NCBI GenBank assembly: GCA_943846675.1 | Contig: OX044357.1 | Location: 1,408,500-1,472,499, forward strand | Direction of reading: 5' to 3' | Source: an uncultured Bacteroidia bacterium | GTDB taxonomy: Bacteria; Bacteroidota; Bacteroidia; NS11-12g; UBA9320 | Length of the DNA stretch: 64,000 nucleotides | In this document: in pieces, positions 33,777 to 44,277 of the stretch | Numbering within the stretch: the first letter of the stretch is position 1 | Layout: the number at the start of each line of letters is the position of its first letter | Position numbers and translations under genes: made by a program | The notes under the pieces: generated by a model | The model's input: only the letters and a program-made list of their open reading frames with translations | Told to the model about the DNA's origin: nothing | Databases searched by the model: none

Positions 33777-34000
33777 ACACTCTTTTGTGCGCTAAGGCCT
33801 GAACCACATGGGCCAAATGGTGATTGCAGTGCCAAGCGTATAAGCCTATAAAGTGATTTATGGTTAAAGTTGCCTCATGTTCTGGATGAACCAATAGCTT
33901 TTGTAGTTCGTCTGCTGACAAGTGATTTAAAAGGTATGACCACTTTTCATGTAAGCCATCTCTAGTGGTGAGTATGTTTTTTTTATATACATAATGTTTA
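33777..34000 (-). pseudogene. DinB/YfiT-superfamily-like C-terminal fragment lacking an in-frame ATG; a frameshift at an A8 tract restores a Met start
   Basis: The minus-strand frame ...NILTTRDGLHEKWSYLLNHLSADELQKLLVHPEHEATLTINHFIGLYAWHCNHHLAHVVQAL... has a His-rich HxxxHH tail. A +1 A in the aaaaaaaa run at about 33977-33984 would join it to ATG TAT ATA. Confidence 0.25.
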
Positions 34001-34104
34001 ATTCATGGGAATTTACAAAGGCCTACATGTACTTATGTTTATTCCCGCTATAAATGTAGGAAATCCACTTGGGTATCAGTGAAAAAATCAAAAAATCTAA
34101 ACAG

Positions 34105-34343
34105 GATTATTCCTCAAACCTTCGCAAGCTTCGGTTTTCTGTGTTTGTAAGATTTTCTGATTAGAACAATGTCGTTCTAGTAAGTGCTGAGATTTGTTTT
34201 TAATTTGAATAAATGAGAATTTCCGCCAACCGCCAACCGCCAACCGCCAACCTCAATGGTTAACGACATTTTATCCTAAATCAAAAATCATCAGTCAGAA
34301 ATCACCACAAGATTATTCCTCAAACCTTCGCAAGCTCCGGTTT
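34105..34343. repeat. Two ~33-bp direct repeats (gattattcctcaaaccttcgcaagctYcggttt) about 206 bp apart, each preceded by aatcaaaaa(a)tc, flanking a CCGCCAA x4 microsatellite
   Basis: Copies at 34105-34137 and 34311-34343, read directly from the sequence. Confidence 0.8.
34223..34250. repeat. Heptanucleotide tandem repeat (CCGCCAA)4
   Basis: ccgccaaccgccaaccgccaaccgccaa followed by the degenerate cctcaat. Confidence 0.9.
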
Positions 34344-34456
34344 ACGTCAAGATCCTGATAGGCTCCAAATTCCGAAAGCAAAGTTCATCCGCCTTTGGCG
34401 GCTTACTTTTTTGTTCCCTTTCGAAAACTCAAGCGAGCTTGGTTTTCTCTGGAAAC

Positions 34457-34497: not shown

Positions 34498-34563
34498 TTA
34501 GTGACCTTGGCAGGACAGAGTTCAAACTTTTTTGAGGATTTTAAGTTATTTAATAATTATGTA

Positions 34564-34941
34564 GGTTCTGTCGCACCTATTAGACAAGAATTTAAAAGTA
34601 CAATTATTTTTTAATTCTAAGCGGCCAATGACATGAACGATTTAAACATAGTTTTATCTTGACCAATCAACTGATTTTTCTTAATCATTCTGACAATTTC
34701 AATTCCTGATAAGGTTCTTCTAGCAGATTCAAATTCTTTAAATCCCAAACCTTGCTGAATTCGCCATTTGATAAAACGGTGATCTTGTTCGGTTCTGTCG
34801 CATCTGACTATTTTATTCCTTTTCTTTATCAAAAATGGAATCAGATAAATAATTAAAGTGCTGATTTTCAATTGAATTTATTTTATGACATTTGAATTTT
34901 ATCAGTTTAAATCGGTTAAATTTGGTAGATGCGACAGAACC
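34564..34941. mobile_element. Internally deleted IS6-family insertion-sequence remnant (MITE-like, ~378 bp) with terminal inverted repeats
   Basis: Left end GGTTCTGTCGCAC (34564-34576) and right end GTGCGACAGAACC-like (34930-34941) are inverted copies and resemble the IS6-family IR consensus GGTTCTGTTGCAAAGT. They enclose only a truncated transposase C-terminus. Confidence 0.5.
34617..34871 (-). pseudogene. Truncated IS6-family transposase (C-terminal ~50 aa only)
   Basis: ...DRTEQDHRFIKWRIQQGLGFKEFESARRTLSGIEIVRMIKKNQL matches the conserved IS6/IS26-type transposase C-terminal block (NxIEQDHRxIKxRxxxMxGFKSFxSAxxTLxGIExxxMIRKGQ). Confidence 0.5.
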
Positions 34942-35006
34942 CAAGCGTTGGCTTGTGTGAATTGCAAATGTGCTTGCGGCTACCTTTTTTAAGTTAATCA
35001 ATTATT

Positions 35007-36236
35007 TCACTTTTTTACTATTCTTGATAAGTATACCAATGGTTTTACAATAAGTAAATAGCTAAACTTCTTTAAAACGAAACTTTTATCAATAACCTTT
35101 GCTGCCTTTTCGCCATAATGGTAATACCATTTAACGAAACTTTCTCCCCAGTTTTTTGTTAAAATCCATTCATCTCGGAAATAACGTAATTCCATCACTT
35201 GTGGGTCGTCATAGCTGCCCATTGCTGCGGTTGCTATAAAACAAAAAGACTTATTACCGCATTCATGGCACACTCCTCTTTTCGCCTTTTTTGCTTTAAC
35301 GGTCATTGGGAGGCCGCATTTATCACATTTAACTGGCCGGTGGATACGGAGAAAAAATCGTTTAAAATATGAATTAGTACTAATGTTATCCCAATTTAAA
35401 GCTTTTAGGTTTATGAGGGTGTTTACTTTCAAAGAGATTATTATAAAATTTTTTTCTAGTAATGCAGGGTTTAATTTGAAAAAATCAAAAACTTTAGAAG
35501 AAATATTACTAACAGATTCCGAATCCGTTGTCAAGGTTAAACCACCATATGTAAATGATATTATTTGTTTATACACCTGTTCATTTGTAATTTTAATTTC
35601 AGCATCATTAAGAATAATGGATTTTTCAACAGAAGTTTGAGGAACTTCAAAAAAACTTTCTATTTTATTTAAAGGGTTACCTGATAAATCAATCTTTATT
35701 AGATAGTTAAAAGTATCATTTACATTTATCACAGAGACTTCGTTATTTGAAAGATTAATCTCCATAACATTAGGGAATAAAGCTAAATCTGATAAATCAT
35801 TAATTTTATTATTGCTAACATCTAAGAACCTTACCATTTCTAGTTCTGTATCACTAAACCAATCCGCTAGTTCAGAAATACTGATAAGTCCTTTATTTGT
35901 AACTTTTAATAAACCTGCACCTCCTGAGTAATCCGATTCAATATCATCTCTAAAAAATTTAGATGGTCTATTTTTAAAATGAACTATCCATCCATCATCA
36001 ACTCTAACTTTGTTATGTAGCTCAGAAAAATTAGGAACAGTTGATATTTTCTTTTCTTTTGGAGGTACTATGTGAGGTTTTGACTTTATTCTGCTTACAT
36101 GTTCTGTTTGAATTGACTTTCTTTTTATTGATGGAGTGCTTATCAAGTTAGAACAAAATTCACATTTCACATTAGATTGACCATCTTCATAAACGTTAGC
36201 AGCGCCACAACTGGTGCATGAAATTGACTTACTCAT
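35007..36236 (-). CDS. Zinc-ribbon plus leucine-rich-repeat protein with a second CxxC...CxxC pair and a conserved C-terminal module (paralog B)
   Basis: N-terminal CTSCGAANVY...CEFCSNL zinc ribbon. LRR units (LDVSNNKINDLSDLALFPNVMEINLSNNEVSVINVN...IDLSGNPLNKIE). CDKCG...CHECG, then FCFIATAAMGSYDDPQVMELRYFRDEWIL...LVYLSRIVKK. Confidence 0.6.
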   Translation of the reverse strand: MSKSISCTSCGAANVYEDGQSNVKCEFCSNLISTPSIKRKSIQTEHVSRIKSKPHIVPPKEKKISTVPNFSELHNKVRVDDGWIVHFKNRPSKFFRDDIESDYSGGAGLLKVTNKGLISISELADWFSDTELEMVRFLDVSNNKINDLSDLALFPNVMEINLSNNEVSVINVNDTFNYLIKIDLSGNPLNKIESFFEVPQTSVEKSIILNDAEIKITNEQVYKQIISFTYGGLTLTTDSESVSNISSKVFDFFKLNPALLEKNFIIISLKVNTLINLKALNWDNISTNSYFKRFFLRIHRPVKCDKCGLPMTVKAKKAKRGVCHECGNKSFCFIATAAMGSYDDPQVMELRYFRDEWILTKNWGESFVKWYYHYGEKAAKVIDKSFVLKKFSYLLIVKPLVYLSRIVKK

Positions 36237-36449
36237 TTCAATTTTTAAATTTGGTTATTTTTTTTAAATCTGTTATTTCCTTCAATAAGGTATCGCCTTC
36301 TTCTAAGTGTTTAAATAGCAATACTTTCAAGTTCCTTTAACATACTTCAAAGTGCTGTAAAAAACCCTTCTATCTCATAGTTTTTATTAGCTCTTTTTTT
36401 AATGACTTCAAGTGATTCTTCAATAAATTTTCTTATTTCTTCCATAATT

Positions 36450-37697
36450 TTACTTTTTTACTATTCTTGATAAGTATACTAATGGTTTCACAATAAGTAA
36501 ATAGCTAAACTTCTTTAAGATGTAACTTTTTTCAATGAACTTAGCAGCAATTGCTCCATAATGGTAATACCATTTAACAAAACTTTCACCCCAACTTTTT
36601 TGTAAAATCCATTCATCACGAAAATGACGTAACTCCATGACCTGAGGATGGTCATAACTGCCCATGGTGGCAGTTGCAATAAAGCAAAAAGAAGTTTCTT
36701 TATCTTTAAATGAGGTGCTATATTTTTTCAAATATGCTTCCTTAAGTTGGGAGAAATTGCCCGTCCTTATCTTTATTTCGTGATTACTCCCTTTTGAGTC
36801 AATAATATTCATTTTAAAAAGGATCTTATTTTCAAAATCCTTGGCCTTTAGGTAATTCCCGCTTTTCATTCGAATAAGAGGACCGTAATTAATTTTAGAC
36901 AACAAATCTGGTGAACCATCTGGGTATTTGTTTTTAAGTTTACGTATTGTGTCAGATAAATCAACAGGGTTGTCTGTAAAGTCTAAATTAACGCTGATAC
37001 CATCAATAATTAACACCTCTAATGCAACAAAATCAATCGTTTGTATTTTATTCTTTGACAGATCTATTTGCAGTATATTCTGTATTTTCCAATAATTAGT
37101 ATCAATTATTGTGTTTATATTGAAGGTAGTAATTAAGTTCTCTGATAAGTCTAATTTTTTTAATTCATTCGATTTTATGTTAAAATTAGTAGAGGTAATT
37201 TCATTATTTTTGAGAATTAATCTCTCAAGATTAATTAAATGAGAAATATCATAAGAGTCACTAAGTTTATTGTTCGAAAGATCTAGAAATCTGATACTTT
37301 GAAGTTCAGTATCGGTATACCAATCGAATAAGTCTTCAAATGCTTGTAAGTTCTTCCTCGTTAAAAGAAGTTCACCTCCCCCATTAGAATAATCAAATAC
37401 AATTTTATCTTGAACAAACTTAGAAGGTTTGTTTTTGAAATGAGCAATCCAACCATTGTCAACCCTAACAAGATTATGAGGTTCACCAAAATTGGGAGGG
37501 TTTGATGATTTTTTCTGCCTAGGCTTTGTAATTTCGGGTTTTGTTTTTAGGCGACTTTCTCCTCCATTTTTTATAGCTTTAGTTTCATTGATGGGAATAT
37601 TTATTACACTACCACAAAAATCACATTTAACTGATGATTCCCCCGATTCATAGATATTTGCCCCACCACAACTTTGACAGTTAATTGCTCTACTCAT
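36450..37697 (-). CDS. Zinc-ribbon plus leucine-rich-repeat protein sharing the N-terminal ribbon and the C-terminal module with 35007..36236 (paralog A)
   Basis: CQSCGGANIY...CDFCGSV, LRRs (LDLSNNKLSDSYDISHLINLERLILKNNEITS...LDLSENLIT...IDLSKNKIQTID). The C-terminal FCFIATATMGSYDHPQVMELRHFRDEWIL...LVYLSRIVKK is near-identical to the paralog. Confidence 0.6.
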   Translation of the reverse strand: MSRAINCQSCGGANIYESGESSVKCDFCGSVINIPINETKAIKNGGESRLKTKPEITKPRQKKSSNPPNFGEPHNLVRVDNGWIAHFKNKPSKFVQDKIVFDYSNGGGELLLTRKNLQAFEDLFDWYTDTELQSIRFLDLSNNKLSDSYDISHLINLERLILKNNEITSTNFNIKSNELKKLDLSENLITTFNINTIIDTNYWKIQNILQIDLSKNKIQTIDFVALEVLIIDGISVNLDFTDNPVDLSDTIRKLKNKYPDGSPDLLSKINYGPLIRMKSGNYLKAKDFENKILFKMNIIDSKGSNHEIKIRTGNFSQLKEAYLKKYSTSFKDKETSFCFIATATMGSYDHPQVMELRHFRDEWILQKSWGESFVKWYYHYGAIAAKFIEKSYILKKFSYLLIVKPLVYLSRIVKK

Positions 37698-38148
37698 TTT
37701 TATCGTTTTTAAATTGGATAAACATTTTTTTTGCTAATTTTTCAAAACTTACCTTTTCACCTTCGATCAGGATATATGTGTTTTGGTTAAAGGGTTTTAA
37801 TTTTTCTAACTCATTATTTACTTCTTCTACCTTGCCTAGCAATAGAAAACATTGAAAAATACCGTAATGACATTTTGCTGCGGTTTTTCCAAATTCATTT
37901 CCGCTGTCTAATGCAGAAATTGTTGCATCAGGATAATTAGTAATTACTTGATTGAATGTTTCAATTGCTTGCTCGAACTGTTTTATTTTAAAGTAGCAAA
38001 GACCAACATTATATAATGCATCATCAGCTAAATCACTTTGAGGGTATTCATCAATTAACATTTTGAATTTGTTGATTGAATCAAGATAAAATTCATCTTT
38101 AGCAAGATTAAGTCCTTCTGTAAAATACTGTATTTCGTTATCGTGCAT
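37690..38148 (-). CDS. Tetratricopeptide-repeat (TPR) protein
   Basis: 152 aa with about three TPR-like units (ADDALYNVGLCYFKIKQFEQAIETFNQVITNYPD...). The stop overlaps the start of the LRR gene. Confidence 0.55.
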   Translation of the reverse strand: MHDNEIQYFTEGLNLAKDEFYLDSINKFKMLIDEYPQSDLADDALYNVGLCYFKIKQFEQAIETFNQVITNYPDATISALDSGNEFGKTAAKCHYGIFQCFLLLGKVEEVNNELEKLKPFNQNTYILIEGEKVSFEKLAKKMFIQFKNDKNE

Positions 38149-38500
38149 TTCGTTTGTTTTTTTGTTCTTGTTTATAATCGGATGCCGAAAAAGTTTCGGC
38201 TTTAGAAACTTTCAAAATATATGTTGCTCCACCTAAAAGTAAAGCAAGTGCGACACCAAATCCTGTATCGTACCAAACTTGTTTGTAACAGATATAGCCA
38301 CCTACAATTAAAATAGAACTGAATAGAAATACAGCTACTTTACCGTTAATAGATGAAATAAAAGCGATAGGCAGAAATAAAATAATAAAAGCTATAATGA
38401 TTTGAGCAAACGAACGGTCAGTTTCAAAAGCATAAATTAATATCCCACAACTTAAACCTGCTAATAGTATTCCGATAATTGTACTTGCTATTTTACTCAT
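38138..38500 (-). CDS. Small integral membrane protein (3-4 TM helices)
   Basis: 120 aa, almost entirely hydrophobic helices, with a basic C-terminal tail. Coupled to its neighbours by overlapping start and stop codons. Confidence 0.5.
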   Translation of the reverse strand: MSKIASTIIGILLAGLSCGILIYAFETDRSFAQIIIAFIILFLPIAFISSINGKVAVFLFSSILIVGGYICYKQVWYDTGFGVALALLLGGATYILKVSKAETFSASDYKQEQKNKRNAR

Positions 38501-39483
38501 TATAAGTTGTTTAAAATTCGTTTTTTAGTTTCGTTAAACTCTTCTTGGTCAATGGCTCCCATATCCAATAACTCTTTAAGTTTTTTCAATTTTGAAAAAG
38601 AGTCTTCTTCTGTATCTGCTGATTGATTATTCTGTTGCATAGCTTGATTCATCATTTGTGGAATCATAAACCCCATACCCATACCTGCTCCGAGCCCCAT
38701 TCCTTCACCAGCATTTCCTGTAGGATTTTCTGCCGCCTTTTCCATTGATTGTCCCATTTGAAACTTCATAAAATCGTCCATATTTCCGACAGCAGACATT
38801 CCTGAGCGAGTGTCAATCATTTTTTGAACTTCTGGTGGAACTGAAACAGAATTAATTAAGAAATCATGTAATTCTAAACCCAGCCCTTCAAAATCAAGAT
38901 TTAAGCTGTTTTTTATTAAAATTGATAGGTTATCAAAATGTTGCGGTAAGTCGAATACTGTTTTCACATGTTGTCCGAGAGTAACGTTCAGTTTTTGAAG
39001 AATGATTGATTTTAAGTAATCCGAAATGTCGGAATCTCGAAAAACACCTTGTGTACCAACAACTTTATTTAGAAATAACGAAGGTTCTTTTATTGTAATG
39101 GAAAATGCTCCATAACTCCTCAACCTTATCATTTTCAATTCAGAATCTCTAAATAAGATTGGCTCTTTTGTTCCCCACTTTAAGTTTCGAAACAACTTCA
39201 TGTTAAGGAAATAAACCTCAGATTTGAATGGAGAGTCTTTTCCGTAACCTAATGAAGTTATTAATTTGGTTAAAATTGGAATGTTTTGAGTTTTTAAAAC
39301 ATGTCTACCAGCACTAAAAACATCTAATGATTTTCCATCTCTGAAAAAGACAGCCTTTTGACTTTCTCGAACAATGAGTTGAGCACCCATTTTAAATTCA
39401 CCACTACTATCTTCTGGTACTCTTTGCACCATAGAGTCTCCTGTGTTATCAAGGTATTCTATTATTTCCATTAGTTTTCCCAT
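38500..39483 (-). CDS. SPFH/band-7-like protein of the YdjI (COG4260, 'virion core protein'-annotated) type with a C-terminal SHOCT domain
   Basis: Architecture and blocks (GTKEPILF..., ...HDFLINSVSVPPEVQKMIDTRSGMSAVG) parallel Bacillus YdjI. A Gly/Met-rich linker leads to FSKLKKLKELLDMGAIDQEEFNETKKRIL, the SHOCT motif. Confidence 0.65.
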   Translation of the reverse strand: MGKLMEIIEYLDNTGDSMVQRVPEDSSGEFKMGAQLIVRESQKAVFFRDGKSLDVFSAGRHVLKTQNIPILTKLITSLGYGKDSPFKSEVYFLNMKLFRNLKWGTKEPILFRDSELKMIRLRSYGAFSITIKEPSLFLNKVVGTQGVFRDSDISDYLKSIILQKLNVTLGQHVKTVFDLPQHFDNLSILIKNSLNLDFEGLGLELHDFLINSVSVPPEVQKMIDTRSGMSAVGNMDDFMKFQMGQSMEKAAENPTGNAGEGMGLGAGMGMGFMIPQMMNQAMQQNNQSADTEEDSFSKLKKLKELLDMGAIDQEEFNETKKRILNNL

Positions 39484-39484
39484 C

Positions 39485-39934
39485 TTACAAATCTTTTAAG
39501 TACTGGTTTCTTTTATTAATTGAGTTTTCAAGTGATTGAATATGTTGTTTCGTATTCTCTAAATTCGTAGCTGCTAGTCCTTCTTGCAAATTTTCTGTAG
39601 CATCAAAAATGTCTAAATCCATTTGATAGATATTTTCAAGTTCCTCATTTTTAATTACTGAGTCTGAAAAAAAAGCAGAAGCCCCATAAGGTGAATACTT
39701 TATTAAATCTTTCAGATTATTGATTTTCTTCCTCACTTTTTCAATTTCAGCTAACTCAGATAATTCAGAAACTTCAATTAATGAATTGATAATTTTTTCT
39801 GTTTCAGAAAGCTTATCTGCAATTTGTTCTCTTAATTGTCGGTCGCATTCTCTTCTGCTGTCTCTTTCTTGATAACCTTTATAACCAGGTATCAATGTTC
39901 CGATTTTGTCAAATATGTTTGTTTTTCTATTCAT
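39485..39934 (-). CDS. Hypothetical coiled-coil protein, first gene of the operon
   Basis: 149 aa, highly charged with helical heptad character. The weak N-terminal IFDKIGTLI resembles PspA/Vipp1 starts, but I cannot establish that. Confidence 0.4.
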   Translation of the reverse strand: MNRKTNIFDKIGTLIPGYKGYQERDSRRECDRQLREQIADKLSETEKIINSLIEVSELSELAEIEKVRKKINNLKDLIKYSPYGASAFFSDSVIKNEELENIYQMDLDIFDATENLQEGLAATNLENTKQHIQSLENSINKRNQYLKDL

Positions 39935-40092
39935 ATTTATCAGTTATGTAAGCGTTGTCAAAAAAGCAATGTGTGCGCAGCACTCTTTGCTTTGTGCGGT
40001 GTTACCACATAAGTGCCTGCACCTCTTTGATAATAAATAATAAAATGTTTTGCAGCCATAGAGTTATTTTGTAAGTCTTCAAACACAAGCTC

Positions 40093-40115
40093 AAAATGCA
40101 GCCAATCTGCATTTT
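40093..40115. promoter_or_regulatory. Perfect 9-bp inverted repeat with a 5-bp spacer (aaaatgcag-ccaat-ctgcatttt) in the promoter region of the island operon; candidate operator
   Basis: Read directly. It lies between the XRE regulator gene end (40171) and the operon start (39934). Confidence 0.45.
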
Positions 40116-40170
40116 CGATTTAACAGGTATGTTTGTGCAGAATCAATAATTATTTTCATTAAAATTTAAT

Positions 40171-40362
40171 CTATCTACTTGAAACAATTAAATCTTTTAT
40201 ATCTACATCTATAATCTCAGCGATTTCATTCAAAATCTCCAATCGGGGTTGTTGTCTGTTTTGTACATAGCCGTTCACCATATTATAACTTTTATCTAAC
40301 TCTTCAGCTAGCCAAGTTTGCTTGATACCCTTTTCTTCTAGTACTTCTTTTATTCTGTTCAT
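40171..40362 (-). CDS. XRE-family (Cro/CI-type) helix-turn-helix transcriptional regulator
   Basis: 63 aa with the HTH_3 pattern IKQTWLAEELDKSYNMVNGYVQNRQQPRLEILNEIAEII. Confidence 0.8.
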   Translation of the reverse strand: MNRIKEVLEEKGIKQTWLAEELDKSYNMVNGYVQNRQQPRLEILNEIAEIIDVDIKDLIVSSR

Positions 40363-40453
40363 GATAATTTGAAATTCAATATCTAAAATAGATATTATAT
40401 ATTGAAAAACAAGATGTAAAAGACACTTATTTCAATACCTGTTAAATCGAAAA

Positions 40454-40510
40454 ACGTCGTTTGAACACAAATTACGACGTACAACGACGTTTAACGGCAT
40501 TCGACGTCGT
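40454..40510. promoter_or_regulatory. Cluster of at least four palindromic heptamers ACG(A/T)CGT upstream of the XRE gene; candidate operator or iteron array
   Basis: acgtcgt (40454), acgacgt (40474), acgacgt (40484), cgacgtcgt (40502). Confidence 0.45.
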
Positions 40511-40962: not shown

Positions 40963-41402
40963 CGTTTTTTAATTTTTATTTTAAGAACTTCATTTCTCGC
41001 GTATATGCGATACATATATCTATAAGTAATATGATACTCTTTTTCATTATGGTTAATTCTTCCGATGTGATAACCAGATTTGAAACCATCAGCTTTAAGG
41101 ACATCATAAAACCTTTCAATTTCATCCTGTCTCTTCTCGCTATTAAAATGTCTTTCTAGAACGTTGTCATTCTTCAGTAGTATTTTTTCATCTCTTATTC
41201 TGTGTCTATTCTTGGACTTTCTCTTTCCGTGGTTGTAAGCAAAGTCAGCATGCTGCTTGTTTAAATAAATATTATCACTTCTACTAGGATAGAATGAATA
41301 GCCGCAACCACATTCACATTCTCTAGCGGAAATCGGTCTTGGTAGAGGTGTGCTTCCCTTAGGATCTAGTATTTCTTCTATTTCTATATTGTTTGGCTCC
41401 AT
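40959..41402 (-). CDS. Hypothetical protein
   Basis: 147-aa ORF with a CECGCG motif and no confident family. Confidence 0.35.
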   Translation of the reverse strand: MEPNNIEIEEILDPKGSTPLPRPISARECECGCGYSFYPSRSDNIYLNKQHADFAYNHGKRKSKNRHRIRDEKILLKNDNVLERHFNSEKRQDEIERFYDVLKADGFKSGYHIGRINHNEKEYHITYRYMYRIYARNEVLKIKIKKR

Positions 41403-41451
41403 TGTAATGAAAATATTACTATATTTGACAAATATAATAATTATTACGCAT

Positions 41452-42402
41452 ATGTCAGAACGAATAAATATTTTAAATCAGGAAGAGTTGGAGTACCTCA
41501 ACAGTTCTGAATATAAATTCGAATATCCAGGTCTTAGAAATGCTATGGACGTTCCCAGATTTACAATAAGTGATTTAGGGGTTACGGCAAGAGATGCAAC
41601 GTATTGGTCAAAGAAAGAAATTCTGCCTGAAGTCAAAGGCGGAAATACAACAAGGAGAAAATATACTTTAAAGCAAGCTCTATGGATAAAGCTAATTCAG
41701 CAACTAAGGTCTTTTGATATTTCACTTAACCAAATCAAAAAAATAAAGGATCATTTATTAACCTCAGATGTTAATATAAAGGAGCTGATGGAAAATGAGC
41801 AAGTGAATATTATACTCGAAAGATTGGTTGATAAAGATGGTCAGCTTGAAGAATATAAAAAATTAATGAAAGACCCTTCTTTTCTTAAAGAATTAGAAGG
41901 CCAAAATCTTGATGTTTTTGAGATGATGGTATTATATACAATTATATTCAGAAGGGATGTAAGCTACATAGTGACAGTCGATGGTTATGGCCTCCCATAT
42001 GTCTTTGATAAACATGAGATCATGAAAAAGAACTTTCCGGAGTTCGAGTTATTAATGAAAAGCCCTCATATCGTCCTTTCATTATCTCAAGCATATAGTC
42101 AGTTAATCCAGGATTGGAGTGAGAAAAAATGGTTTAATGAAGTGTCTATTGTTTCAAAGGATGAGAAAAAAATACTTGGTCTGATGCGGGATAAAACGAC
42201 CAAAGAATTGAGAATAATGAAGAATAAGGATGAGATAGACAGAGTAATCCTTATTAAGGACAAATCCATTAACGCCATAGAAGAGTTTGCTAATCACATC
42301 GTAAGAAACGGTTATCAGACAATTACGATTAGCACACGTCAAGGCAAGCCGGTCCATTTCAAAAATGAAGTATCTATTAAACTAAAGAACATACCGGAAT
42401 AA
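41452..42402 (+). CDS. Hypothetical protein with an N-terminal MerR/excisionase-type HTH
   Basis: Internal ATG at 41452 (MSERIN...). RFTISDLGVTARDATYWSKKEIL resembles the HTH_17/excisionase-like DNA-binding helix. It sits adjacent to the recombinase. Confidence 0.4.
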   Translation: MSERINILNQEELEYLNSSEYKFEYPGLRNAMDVPRFTISDLGVTARDATYWSKKEILPEVKGGNTTRRKYTLKQALWIKLIQQLRSFDISLNQIKKIKDHLLTSDVNIKELMENEQVNIILERLVDKDGQLEEYKKLMKDPSFLKELEGQNLDVFEMMVLYTIIFRRDVSYIVTVDGYGLPYVFDKHEIMKKNFPEFELLMKSPHIVLSLSQAYSQLIQDWSEKKWFNEVSIVSKDEKKILGLMRDKTTKELRIMKNKDEIDRVILIKDKSINAIEEFANHIVRNGYQTITISTRQGKPVHFKNEVSIKLKNIPE

Positions 42403-42639: not shown

Positions 42640-44238
42640 GTGAATATGGATAAACTAAACGAATTCAAAAAATTTAGCCCTGAGCGGAAAACTCTTGGAG
42701 AAAATAATAATGCAATTATCTATACTCGCGTGTCAACAAAAGAACAAGCGGACACAAACACTAGTCTTGGAACTCAAAAAAGGTATTGCGAAAATTATGC
42801 TAAAGCCAATGGGTTATATGTAGTAGCCTACTTTGGAGGAACCCACGAGTCAGCAAAAAGTGATGATAGAAAGGAGTTTAAAAGAATGCTTAAGTATGTC
42901 AAGCAAAGTGGCTCTATAGGTTACATTATTGTTTATTCATACGATCGGTTTTCAAGAACAGGATCTAGTGCATCTCAAATTACTCATGAATTACTCGATC
43001 AAGGAATTCAAGTTAAAGCTGTCACTCAAGAGGTTGATGCAACTTCGGCTTCAGGTAAATTCCAACAAAATCTATTCTATATGTTCAGTCAATTTGACAA
43101 CGAACTGAGAAGAGATAAGACAATCACTGCAATGAGTGACTTATTACGAAAAGGCTATTGGCTTTGGAATCCTCCGGTAGGCTATATTAACCAGAAAAAA
43201 TATCATAAAGCCGTGGAATGGGATATTGTGATTGATGAGAACGGAAAACAATTGAAGAAAGCTTTTAAGTGGAGATTGAAAAATACCTACTCGAATGTAG
43301 AAATAGTGCGAAGGCTGAATGCAGCAGGAATGATGATAAATGAAAAGCGCTTGCATGAGATTTTTAAGAATCCTTTTTATTGCGGAATCCTTGTCTGTAA
43401 AATGTTACCCGGAGAGATAATTGAAGGAAAGCACAAGCCTATTGTATCTAAAGAGGATTTTTTAATAATCAACTCTGAAAGAACACCCCAACTGAAAGAA
43501 TATAAAACGGATAACGATCAACTTCCTTTAAAGCAATTCGTTTATTGTGAGGCTTGCAAAACACCTTTGACGGGTTTTCTTGTCAAGCAAAAAGGGTTGT
43601 ATTATTATAAATGCAGAACCAAAGGATGCAGCTGCAACAAGTCTGCGAAACATCTACACGAGCAGTTTGAAAAGAAATTAAGTAGTTATCAAGTCGATTC
43701 TAAATATGTGGATATAATCAAAGAGGTAATGATTTACACGTATGATTCTGTAACTAAAGAAATAAGAGAGAATGAAGCAAATGTAAAGAAGCAATTGAGC
43801 CTGCTAAAGTCTAAAATTGATACCATAGAAGAACGCTTTGCAATTGGAGAAATTGACAATGAAATCTACAAGAAATTTAAAACTAAATATGAAGCGGAAG
43901 AAAAGAAGTTAGAGTCAAATTTATTCAGTTCTACAGTTTCGAGTTCGAACCTTCAAATAGCAATAGATAAAGCATTAAAAATGTCTTCCAACCTCAGTGA
44001 ATTATGGACTTCTGGAGATTTATCTCAAAAGAAGAAAATACAAAGTTTAGTGTTTCCATCCGGAATAGGTTACGACAAGTTAAAAGGCAAAGTTCAAACC
44101 AAAAGAGTTAACTCTATTTTCTCATCTATTCCACTATTGACAAAGGATTTGGATAAAATAAAAAGCGGAGAACCAGTTGATTTCAACCAATTCTCCGCAA
44201 GAGTGACCCTGCCAGGATTCAAACCTGGAACCTTCTGA
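42640..44238 (+). CDS. Large serine recombinase (resolvase/invertase-type N-terminal domain plus recombinase domain plus zinc ribbon)
   Basis: The catalytic region AIIYTRVSTKEQ...SYDRFSRT carries the resolvase Ser/Arg motifs. A C-terminal Cys cluster (CEACKTPLTG...CRTKGCSC) and coiled coil follow. The 3' end overlaps tRNA-Arg. Confidence 0.85.
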   Translation: MNMDKLNEFKKFSPERKTLGENNNAIIYTRVSTKEQADTNTSLGTQKRYCENYAKANGLYVVAYFGGTHESAKSDDRKEFKRMLKYVKQSGSIGYIIVYSYDRFSRTGSSASQITHELLDQGIQVKAVTQEVDATSASGKFQQNLFYMFSQFDNELRRDKTITAMSDLLRKGYWLWNPPVGYINQKKYHKAVEWDIVIDENGKQLKKAFKWRLKNTYSNVEIVRRLNAAGMMINEKRLHEIFKNPFYCGILVCKMLPGEIIEGKHKPIVSKEDFLIINSERTPQLKEYKTDNDQLPLKQFVYCEACKTPLTGFLVKQKGLYYYKCRTKGCSCNKSAKHLHEQFEKKLSSYQVDSKYVDIIKEVMIYTYDSVTKEIRENEANVKKQLSLLKSKIDTIEERFAIGEIDNEIYKKFKTKYEAEEKKLESNLFSSTVSSSNLQIAIDKALKMSSNLSELWTSGDLSQKKKIQSLVFPSGIGYDKLKGKVQTKRVNSIFSSIPLLTKDLDKIKSGEPVDFNQFSARVTLPGFKPGTF

Positions 44239-44277
44239 TCCGTAGTCAGATACTCTATTCAGTTGAGCTACAGGGCC
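44204..44277 (-). tRNA. tRNA-Arg (anticodon ACG)
   Basis: Hand-folded. Acceptor GGCCCTG/CAGGGTC with one G-U pair, D-arm GCTC/GAGT, anticodon stem TCTGA/TCAGA with loop CTACGGA (U33, ACG), T-arm CCAGG-TTTGAAT-CCTGG, discriminator A. No CCA is encoded. Confidence 0.7.

Follow-up and report, generated by a model that had tools for sequence, protein, structure and literature searches.

What does a tightly packed set of minus-strand genes, built around an SPFH-domain protein and carried by an uncultured Bacteroidia bacterium, do for its host, and does it belong to any system already described? The question is raised by a locus in contig OX044357.1, of which a stretch of 64,000 nucleotides (nt), hereafter the window, was analysed; coordinates given below are window positions unless another locus (numbered L001 and so on) is named. 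SPFH proteins are universal membrane organisers whose roles in bacteria are poorly understood and, to our knowledge, the only studied example of the Band_7_1 type is the PspA-YdjGHI system of Bacillus subtilis. The answer reached here is that the locus is a copy of a widespread, horizontally mobile five-component cassette, whose products probably assemble around a Band_7_1 SPFH-SHOCT protein into a complex at the inner membrane, on its cytoplasmic side, with conflict-related sensing as the likeliest role; we give this reading a probability of about 0.5. The cassette itself is a real, conserved and undescribed system located on an island, and the initial annotation of the locus, which had proposed a new island-borne operon, is thus supported in part.

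In that annotation, six open reading frames (ORFs), described as coding for a coiled-coil protein, an SPFH-SHOCT protein, a small membrane protein, a TPR protein and two zinc-ribbon-LRR paralogs, were read as one packed transcription unit under the control of an adjacent XRE-type gene. All six minus-strand ORFs and the XRE gene are present where they had been placed (Table 1), and the calls of SPFH and SHOCT domains, TPR, about four transmembrane (TM) helices and zinc ribbons are upheld by Pfam profiles, hydropathy and CxxC motifs. The tight packing holds for genes 1 to 5, whose junctions consist of a 1-nt gap followed by overlaps of 1, 11 and 8 nt, and not for gene 6, which is separated from gene 5 by 213 nt. 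The two are tandem duplicates, and their proteins share 44% identity, the ends being conserved and the middle divergent. The duplication has left at the 3' end of the genes a 265-nt direct repeat, whose copies (A and B in Table 1) are 83% identical and are the footprint of the tandem duplication and a likely recombination handle. No terminator-like site was found in the 213-nt spacer, within which a 32-amino-acid (aa) ORF is called by gene callers in related contigs.

The best evidence that these genes belong together is their recurrence. A metagenome scan seeded with the family of the 149-aa gene 1 product returned 80 loci and, among those with sequence available downstream, the SPFH-SHOCT gene directly followed the 149-aa gene in 76 of 76; the 4-TM gene came next in 52/55, the small TPR gene in 49/53 and a gene for a zinc-ribbon protein in 43/49, with junctions mostly between -1 and +1 nt. 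The order 149-aa protein, SPFH-SHOCT, about 4-TM protein, small TPR protein and zinc-ribbon partner is fixed, and the co-occurrence is far beyond chance; in the kind of neighbourhood search that had been suggested as a check, the same order recurs across loci and phyla. A second scan, seeded with the SPFH protein and limited to one genome per species, gave 21 loci, distributed over Polaribacter, Bacteroidales, Chitinophagales, Ignavibacteriaceae and Calditrichaeota as well as Thermodesulfobacteriota, Smithella, Syntrophorhabdaceae, Desulfuromonadales, Brocadiaceae and Actinomycetes, among others. The 149-aa gene lies directly upstream of the SPFH gene in 14 of these 21 loci; the other seven are L020 (53% identity), L023 and L026 (too little upstream sequence) and L030-L033 (40-48%). 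The occurrence of SPFH proteins of 60% identity in such distant phyla implies horizontal transfer. E-values from the local jackhmmer searches are relative to small databases.

Two members of this collection deserve a separate mention. A complete cassette with a 60% identical SPFH protein was found in L024 (PBNL01000014.1), a metagenome-assembled genome (MAG) labelled as a Methanobacteriota archaeon; the label is doubtful and the contig may be mis-binned, because its neighbouring genes, coding for SH3_3 and Peptidase_M15_4 (D-Ala-D-Ala carboxypeptidase) proteins, are of bacterial type. In a Brocadiaceae MAG (L027), the cassette has no zinc-ribbon partner and lies between genes for a second Band_7 protein, of TM type, before it and a membrane protein with a PilZ domain after it (L027 4495-6093 and 9767-10945), which hints at a variant linked to cyclic di-GMP.

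The SPFH protein (gene 2) carries a Band_7_1 domain (PF13421, residues 28-230, E 5.9e-62, 209.5 bits against a cut-off of 24) and a C-terminal SHOCT domain (PF09851, residues 298-324, E 4.1e-9), and a low-complexity Gly/Met-rich linker lies at about residues 250-290. No hydrophobic 19-residue segment above threshold was found in it, so the protein is predicted to be soluble. Many relatives at 60-95% identity occur across phyla, and none was found by sequence among the chains of the PDB. The product of gene 3, for which neither Pfam nor NCBIfam holds a matching family, shows about four hydrophobic helices by hydropathy and is the predicted membrane anchor of the complex. Gene 4 encodes a cytoplasmic TPR protein (TPR_6, E 3e-12), the C-terminal third of which, about 55 residues, co-varies and travels with the zinc ribbon of the partner gene.

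The first gene had been taken for a coiled-coil protein, a description that its model does not bear out: AlphaFold2 gives a four-helix bundle (pLDDT 78.9, pTM 0.73) with helices at residues 18-55, 58-79, 96-121 and 125-148. Its motifs are sharply conserved, with an invariant N-terminal peptide, NIFDKIG-LIPGY-GY-ER (residues 6-24), and further conservation at YSPYGASAFFS and IYQ-DL. The N-terminus has a pLDDT below 50 in the model, and such an unstructured yet invariant peptide is as would be expected of a segment docking onto a partner; being hydrophobic and Gly-rich, it is also a possible membrane-active segment. No Pfam family was matched by gene 1, and the NCBIfam model NF047596 LIMLP_15305 (Leptospira) was matched weakly, far under its cut-off (E 4.9e-5); in the literature, LIMLP_15305 was met in a single transcriptome table, as a flanking gene. 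The family of gene 1 counts 1,374 representatives at E<=1e-3 in a library clustered at 50% identity and, among the matches listed, nearly all are stand-alone proteins of about 150-180 aa. A comparison of gene 1 with PspA and ESCRT-III, also proposed in the initial annotation, detected no similarity and, more generally, profile searches found no PspA/ESCRT-III homologue among the cassette proteins. In a profile search of the PDB, residues 14-81 of the gene 1 protein gave weak matches to influenza haemagglutinin HA2 (best E 1.2e-3), in a region comprising the fusion peptide and coiled coil of the HA2 N-terminus; the match was rejected as a compositional or coiled-coil artefact, probably the former.

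The fifth component, the zinc-ribbon partner, is the variable part of the cassette. In the window, both paralogs have a CxxC...CxxC motif at residues 7 and 25 (C7, C10, C25 and C28 in paralog 1), which confirms the zinc ribbon assigned to them before. The LRRs assigned alongside it are visible as four or five LxxLxLxxN repeats (LDLSNNKL, LILKNNEI, LDLSENLI, IDLSKNKI), a short array and not a large horseshoe, but in Pfam they score just under the 27-bit cut-offs (LRR_8 25.1 bits, LRR_4 25.0 bits), and a C-terminal domain, the CFI-box, had been overlooked. Paralog 1 is arranged as zinc ribbon, conserved linker domain, LRR region, divergent middle and CFI-box (residues 338-399), and paralog 2 as zinc ribbon, LRR region, a second internal CxxC...CxxC at 304/323 and CFI-box (332-392). 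Both are true members of the CFI-box-CTERM family NF041770, with 72.7 and 70.9 bits for paralogs 1 and 2 against a curated cut-off of 40, and both boxes start with CFIATA, at residues 338 and 332. When 53 partners from different loci were aligned, the only invariant columns were the four cysteines of the N-terminal zinc ribbon (CxxC-18-CxxC). Their middles comprise at least 11 of TPR type, 5 of LRR type and 4 with pentapeptide repeats, the rest being unclassified, in some cases with a non-repeat domain and a second zinc ribbon (L030, L031). The LRR form found in the window is thus a minority variant, and LRRs do not define the system.

The C-terminus of the partners varies as well: among 55 distinct complete partners, 27 end in a CFI-box, 19 in TM helices and 9, some of them split ORFs, in neither. 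The curated CFI-box model is passed by LRR, TPR and pentapeptide partners alike. The domain has an invariant Cys at its start and is modelled as a folded 4-helix domain (pLDDT 93.6). It is widespread in bacteria and archaea, where it is joined to zinc ribbons or to parts with a signal peptide or Big-like domain, with a TM helix after it in some proteins; two small CFI-box proteins that were checked have no SPFH gene nearby, and no mention of the domain was found in the literature. Both NF041770 and NF047596 are naming models with no described function. Because the CFI-box sits where other partners have TM helices, its position suggests a role in membrane association. Several loci contain additional genes at this end of the cassette, namely two or more zinc-ribbon partners (the window, L014, L018, L034, L064), a 144-aa protein after pentapeptide partners (L010 11270-11704), Fib_succ_major-domain proteins after the partner gene in L014 and L035, and a Sel1-repeat protein after it in L007 (10862-11200).

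How the variable part changes is best seen by comparing the window with L006. The two are 99.4% identical at the nucleotide level over 40084-37856, a span that takes in the leader, genes 1-3 and some 97 codons at the start of the TPR gene; at 37856, inside gene 4, they become unrelated, and identity returns at 35243, in the first codons of the gene 6 CFI-box, and continues at 96.7% to 34791. Between these points, one ZnR-TPR-CFI gene (ZnR, zinc ribbon) of L006 replaces the two ZnR-LRR-CFI genes of the window. The same pattern holds among loci whose SPFH proteins are 90-100% identical, in which the partner middles are undetectably similar or at most about 38% identical, the CFI-box is 82-88% identical and genes 1 and 3 are 74-100% identical. 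At the level of sequence, then, the partner middle is replaced wholesale (TPR, LRR, pentapeptide or other) even among loci with 90-100% identical cores. The coding end of the CFI-box is a plausible recombination handle for these replacements, since it is conserved, and duplicated in the window.

Among described systems, the closest is PspA-YdjGHI, or SamGHI, of B. subtilis (Scholz et al., 2021; Ravi et al., 2024; Baur et al., 2026), whose YdjG, YdjH and YdjI were compared with the cassette by published description and, for YdjG, by its first residues. YdjI is a soluble SPFH protein that depends on the membrane proteins YdjG and YdjH for its membrane localisation and directs, in its turn, the localisation of PspA (PMC8581546; bioRxiv 10.64898/2026.02.06.704340; PMC11237479). 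YdjG starts with MIISYKCPNC, an N-terminal zinc ribbon (primer sequence, PMC8581546), and SamGHI is a membrane stress sensor that is independent of PspA for some phenotypes (bioRxiv 10.64898/2026.02.06.704340). With this system the cassette has in common a soluble Band_7_1 SPFH protein in which a low-complexity linker leads to a small C-terminal domain, an operon partner with an N-terminal zinc ribbon (here ...C-x2-C-G...) and a C-terminal anchor, putative in the cassette, an additional membrane protein, and a helical protein as the product of the first gene. Some distant partners (L020, L022, L024, L030 and L031), with a non-repeat middle domain and one or two zinc ribbons, are reminiscent of YdjG as described in the literature.

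In other respects the two differ. The cassette has no PspA/ESCRT-III protein, gene 1 representing instead an unrelated four-helix-bundle family; no cassette protein matches TPM_phosphatase, and a 4-TM and a small TPR protein stand in place of the TPM-domain YdjH. The SPFH protein ends in a SHOCT domain, whereas YdjI has a zinc finger at that place (PMC8581546). Furthermore, the partner carries exchangeable solenoid repeats, with a CFI-box replacing TM helices in about half of the cases, the gene order is another one, and the cassette is mobile and phylogenetically scattered. What is new with respect to YdjGHI is therefore the 149-aa family, the 4-TM and small TPR proteins, the SHOCT tail, the exchangeable solenoid and the CFI-box, and the cassette is best classed with the YdjI-type SPFH scaffold systems, set apart by its exchangeable-receptor architecture. 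The core of an SPFH protein and a zinc-ribbon partner thus occurs in a second arrangement, one that is mobile and much more widespread, in which PspA is missing and three uncharacterised families, together with an exchangeable recognition domain, have been added. The claim of an undescribed gene combination stands, as neither a PADLOC match nor a describing paper was found.

Likenesses to other systems are more distant. As in HflK/C-FtsH, stomatin/QmcA-NfeD(YbbJ) and flotillin FloA/FloT-NfeD2, an SPFH scaffold is encoded together with a dedicated small membrane partner; the SPFH proteins of those pairs, however, have their own TM or hairpin anchor and a Band_7 domain proper, and they lack a ZnR-solenoid partner and the 149-aa family, while the cassette has no NfeD or FtsH. 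The Avs/AVAST STAND nucleoside triphosphatases (NTPases) with TPR sensors and the conflict systems of Kaur et al., 2020 (PMC7159879) share with the cassette a conserved core with fast-swapped repeat modules and a location on islands, beside restriction and defence genes. In contrast to them, the cassette has no NTPase, effector enzyme or PADLOC match; the likeness is one of pattern and not of homology.

From the YdjI precedent and general SPFH biology, a physical model of the complex can be inferred. Proteins of the SPFH family are expected to form oligomeric membrane microdomains or cages (PMC10936438). By analogy with YdjI, the 4-TM protein and the CFI-box or TM end of the partner would hold an SPFH-SHOCT oligomer beneath the inner membrane. 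Docking would be the task of the zinc ribbon, of the small TPR protein and of the invariant peptide at the N-terminus of gene 1, and the solenoid middle would be an exchangeable ligand-binding receptor, of which the window may hold two of LRR type, derived from the tandem duplication. A complex of this kind would recruit or sense, at the membrane, a protein target that varies. Should the exchangeable domain prove to be a receptor, the cassette would offer a compact and testable model of how SPFH scaffolds gain specificity. The exchange between the window and L006 is a ready-made natural experiment, and the cassette gives the orphan CFI-box a first functional context, in the same position as a TM anchor.

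What such a target could be is suggested by the turnover of the partner middle together with the frequent mobile or defence neighbours of the cassette, and on these grounds conflict with phages or other mobile elements, through an output at the membrane, is plausible and is the single most likely function. Genes of defence or restriction adjoin L010 (DruA of Druantia, SIR2-TPR and an integrase), L034 (PrimPol and MmeI-type restriction-modification), L035 (methyltransferase/ResIII helicases and GmrSD) and L021 (DUF3987 primase and ResIII), and an integrase, transposase or tRNA-linked island is found at the window, L006 (insertion sequence (IS) element beside the cassette), L013 (Polaribacter, IS3 transposase directly upstream) and L025 (tyrosine integrase directly upstream). 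L007 and L037 lie in core-genome contexts, and L024, L027 and L038 are uninformative. A more far-reaching form of the proposal is a new class of membrane-based surveillance or immune system, in which an SPFH-SHOCT cage or ring, tethered by the 4-TM protein, would carry solenoid receptors (TPR, LRR or pentapeptide) docked by their zinc ribbons and anchored by a CFI-box or TM helices, recombination exchanging them so as to track phage or mobile-element proteins. Ligand binding would set off a response at the membrane, for instance depolarisation or exclusion, in which the 4-TM subunit or the 149-aa protein would act and no classical enzymatic effector would be needed. This form is put forward tentatively, as more doubtful than likely. 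Were the conflict role true, the cassette would represent a mechanistically new type of defence system.

Several observations weigh against conflict-related sensing. The tally of neighbourhoods covers about a dozen contexts with no background control, and the ORFs in the fetched loci were called with a simple routine of our own. In L007 (Thermodesulfobacteriota, through its genome copy L015) and the related L037, the cassette is fixed between rpoC and valS, a position that looks like vertical, housekeeping-like inheritance. The viral contigs of IMG/VR hold no relative and plasmids no close one, merely distant Band_7_1 proteins at an identity of at most 43% among the matches listed; carriage by phages or plasmids was for these reasons rejected, the PHROGs matches being confined to the SHOCT tail. 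PADLOC-DB v2 gave no match at E<=0.1 for genes 1-4 and noise only for genes 5-6; the XRE gene alone matches, to generic helix-turn-helix (HTH) models. Profile searches for a nuclease, protease, NADase or other effector domain found none, and no paper was found that links Band_7_1 proteins to such partners or to defence. Finally, the CFI-box is not secure as a cytoplasmic anchor, because it also occurs on signal-peptide proteins and on small proteins with no link to SPFH genes.

The main alternative is an envelope-stress or membrane-maintenance module, a PspA-free functional cousin of PspA-YdjGHI/SamGHI in which the SPFH protein and its membrane partners would detect disturbance of the membrane and stabilise it or signal it, the solenoids would fit lineage-specific housekeeping clients, and phages or mobile elements would play no part. 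The SPFH protein is soluble and of the YdjI type, its low-complexity linker ending in a small C-terminal domain, and its pairing with a partner bearing an N-terminal zinc ribbon is kept even in the distant two-gene loci L020, L023, L030 and L031; the rpoC-valS position is conserved in two related lineages, effector enzymes and PADLOC matches are lacking, and SamGHI senses membrane stress, for some phenotypes independently of PspA. Nevertheless, PspA/ESCRT-III and a TPM-domain YdjH are both absent, and the wholesale replacement of the middle on 90-100% identical cores would be unusual for housekeeping clients. Moreover, the cassette is the sole recognisable cargo of the island here, most Bacteroidota loci adjoin integrases, transposases or restriction genes, and the 60% identity of SPFH proteins across distant phyla implies horizontal transfer. 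We regard this explanation as possible, though on balance unlikely.

Still less probable is a module that benefits the island itself, by excluding competitors or stabilising the island, under the control of the island XRE repressor. It would agree with the large share of the cargo space of the island, about 9.7 kb in length, that the cassette occupies, with the XRE gene and its perfect 19-nt inverted repeat directly upstream, and with the location of other copies beside IS elements or integrases. The XRE gene, however, is missing from every other, non-island cassette locus, some cassettes occupy core-genome positions, viral contigs and plasmids hold no close relatives, and the proposal overlaps with the conflict role, from which it is hard to separate.

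A sorting or processing apparatus for CFI-box 'CTERM' proteins, comparable to exosortase/PEP-CTERM or archaeosortase/PGF-CTERM, in which the SPFH complex would act on proteins tagged with the CFI-box, is brought to mind by the curated C-terminal domain with its invariant starting Cys, by the very diverse N-terminal parts attached to it, including those of signal-peptide proteins, and by the possibility of several CFI-box proteins per cassette (the window; L014, L064). This is very improbable: the cassette encodes no protease or transpeptidase, in about a third of the partners TM helices take the place of the CFI-box, small CFI-box proteins found elsewhere have no SPFH gene beside them, and the CFI-box is modelled as a folded 4-helix domain, not as a TM-plus-basic-tail signal. 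The last option, that the genes form no system and are chance neighbours whose overlaps reflect only a compact genome, is refuted by the co-occurrence data, in which order and near-zero junctions recur across phyla (76/76, 52/55, 49/53, 43/49).

Table 1. Features of the cassette and of its island in the window (coordinates in nt; aa, amino acids).
Feature	Position	Strand	Basis or remark
Gene 1, 149-aa helical protein	39485..39934	-	ORF call
Gene 2, SPFH-SHOCT, 327 aa	38500..39483	-	ORF call and Pfam
Gene 3, membrane protein with about 4 TM helices, 120 aa	38138..38500	-	Hydropathy
Gene 4, small TPR protein, 152 aa	37690..38148	-	TPR_6
Gene 5, zinc-ribbon partner paralog 1, 415 aa	36450..37697	-	Motif and profile calls
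Gene 6, zinc-ribbon partner paralog 2, 409 aa	35007..36236	-	Motif and profile calls
Spacer between partner paralogs, 213 nt	36237..36449	-	
Leader/promoter region 5' of gene 1, 236 nt	39935..40170	-	
XRE/Cro-type HTH gene, 63 aa	40171..40362	-	HTH_26/HTH_3, E ~1e-9
Direct repeat copy A (CFI-box coding end and ~22 nt of 3' flank)	34985..35249		83% identical to copy B
Direct repeat copy B (paralog 1 CFI-box coding end and 3' flank)	36428..36692		
tRNA-Arg (ACG), island integration site	44203..44277	-	tRNA call and Rfam
Large serine recombinase (Resolvase, Recombinase, Zn_ribbon_recom)	42640..44238	+	Pfam
Degenerate copy of tRNA-Arg 3' end, probable island boundary (attachment-site (att) remnant)	34498..34527		16-28-nt match

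The carriage of the cassette on a mobile element, already claimed in the initial annotation, is substantiated by a tRNA-Arg island with a large serine recombinase. The recombinase lies by the tRNA, the GC content drops to 0.30-0.35 between about 34 and 45 kb, against about 0.40 outside, and a degenerate repeat of the tRNA end is found at the far side, which is the probable far boundary; the same stretch recurs downstream of the cassette in L006. From the tRNA-Arg gene, the recombinase and the far-end repeat, the cassette is deduced to be the main cargo of the island, of which it fills most of the cargo space, and the same island is present at the same site in contigs L001-L005. The serine-recombinase ORF overlaps the tRNA-Arg gene on the opposite strand by 36 nt; in related contigs the recombinase is called with another start and measures 503-530 aa. 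Three ORFs are found 5' of it: one (41350-42402) codes for a MerR-like HTH protein whose C-terminus is extended at length, and the others for small proteins of 147 aa and of 67 aa, the latter with a TM helix.

The XRE gene had been regarded as the regulator of the operon. Among cassette loci, it is confined to the island copies L001-L005 and is therefore a gene of the island and not part of the cassette; its status as a conserved cassette feature was rejected, as it is missing from all non-island copies. The gene and its upstream region are flanked by the perfect inverted repeat, TTTTCGATTTAACAGGTAT / ATACCTGTTAAATCGAAAA, at 40112-40130 and 40435-40453, with arms 304 nt apart, just 5' of which several ACGTCG/ACGACG motifs occur at about 40450-40510; repeat and motifs might serve as operators or mark where an invertible segment ends. 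L002-L005 show the same orientation, and L001 has a single arm. In the leader of gene 1 Rfam gave no match, the tRNA being the only feature that it found. A structured leader or riboswitch was discarded, the folding being no better than that of shuffled sequences (z -0.46), and scans for promoters and terminators gave no signal above shuffled expectation, the sigma-70 consensus being a poor model for Bacteroidota.

At the left end of the island, a fragment of an IS6/IS240-family transposase (C-terminal 84 aa, 34617-34871, minus strand; PF13610 in the gene called in L001) is accompanied by an inverted repeat (34788-34815 / 34917-34944). The sequence 34791-34941, beside this fragment, is found twice in L006, and this recurrence suggests that an IS has moved the cassette without the serine recombinase. 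The left border itself (33990-34350) is noncoding; a (CCGCCAA)n microsatellite lies there at about 34224-34252, as does a pair of 45-nt direct repeats, 89% identical, at 34093-34137 and 34299-34343. Lastly, in L004, which is 99.9% identical to the window over 8.8 kb, both ZnR-LRR-CFI genes are split into two ORFs each (L004 4587-7279, corresponding to window 37697-35007), reflecting either a recent pseudogenisation of both receptors or indel errors of long reads.

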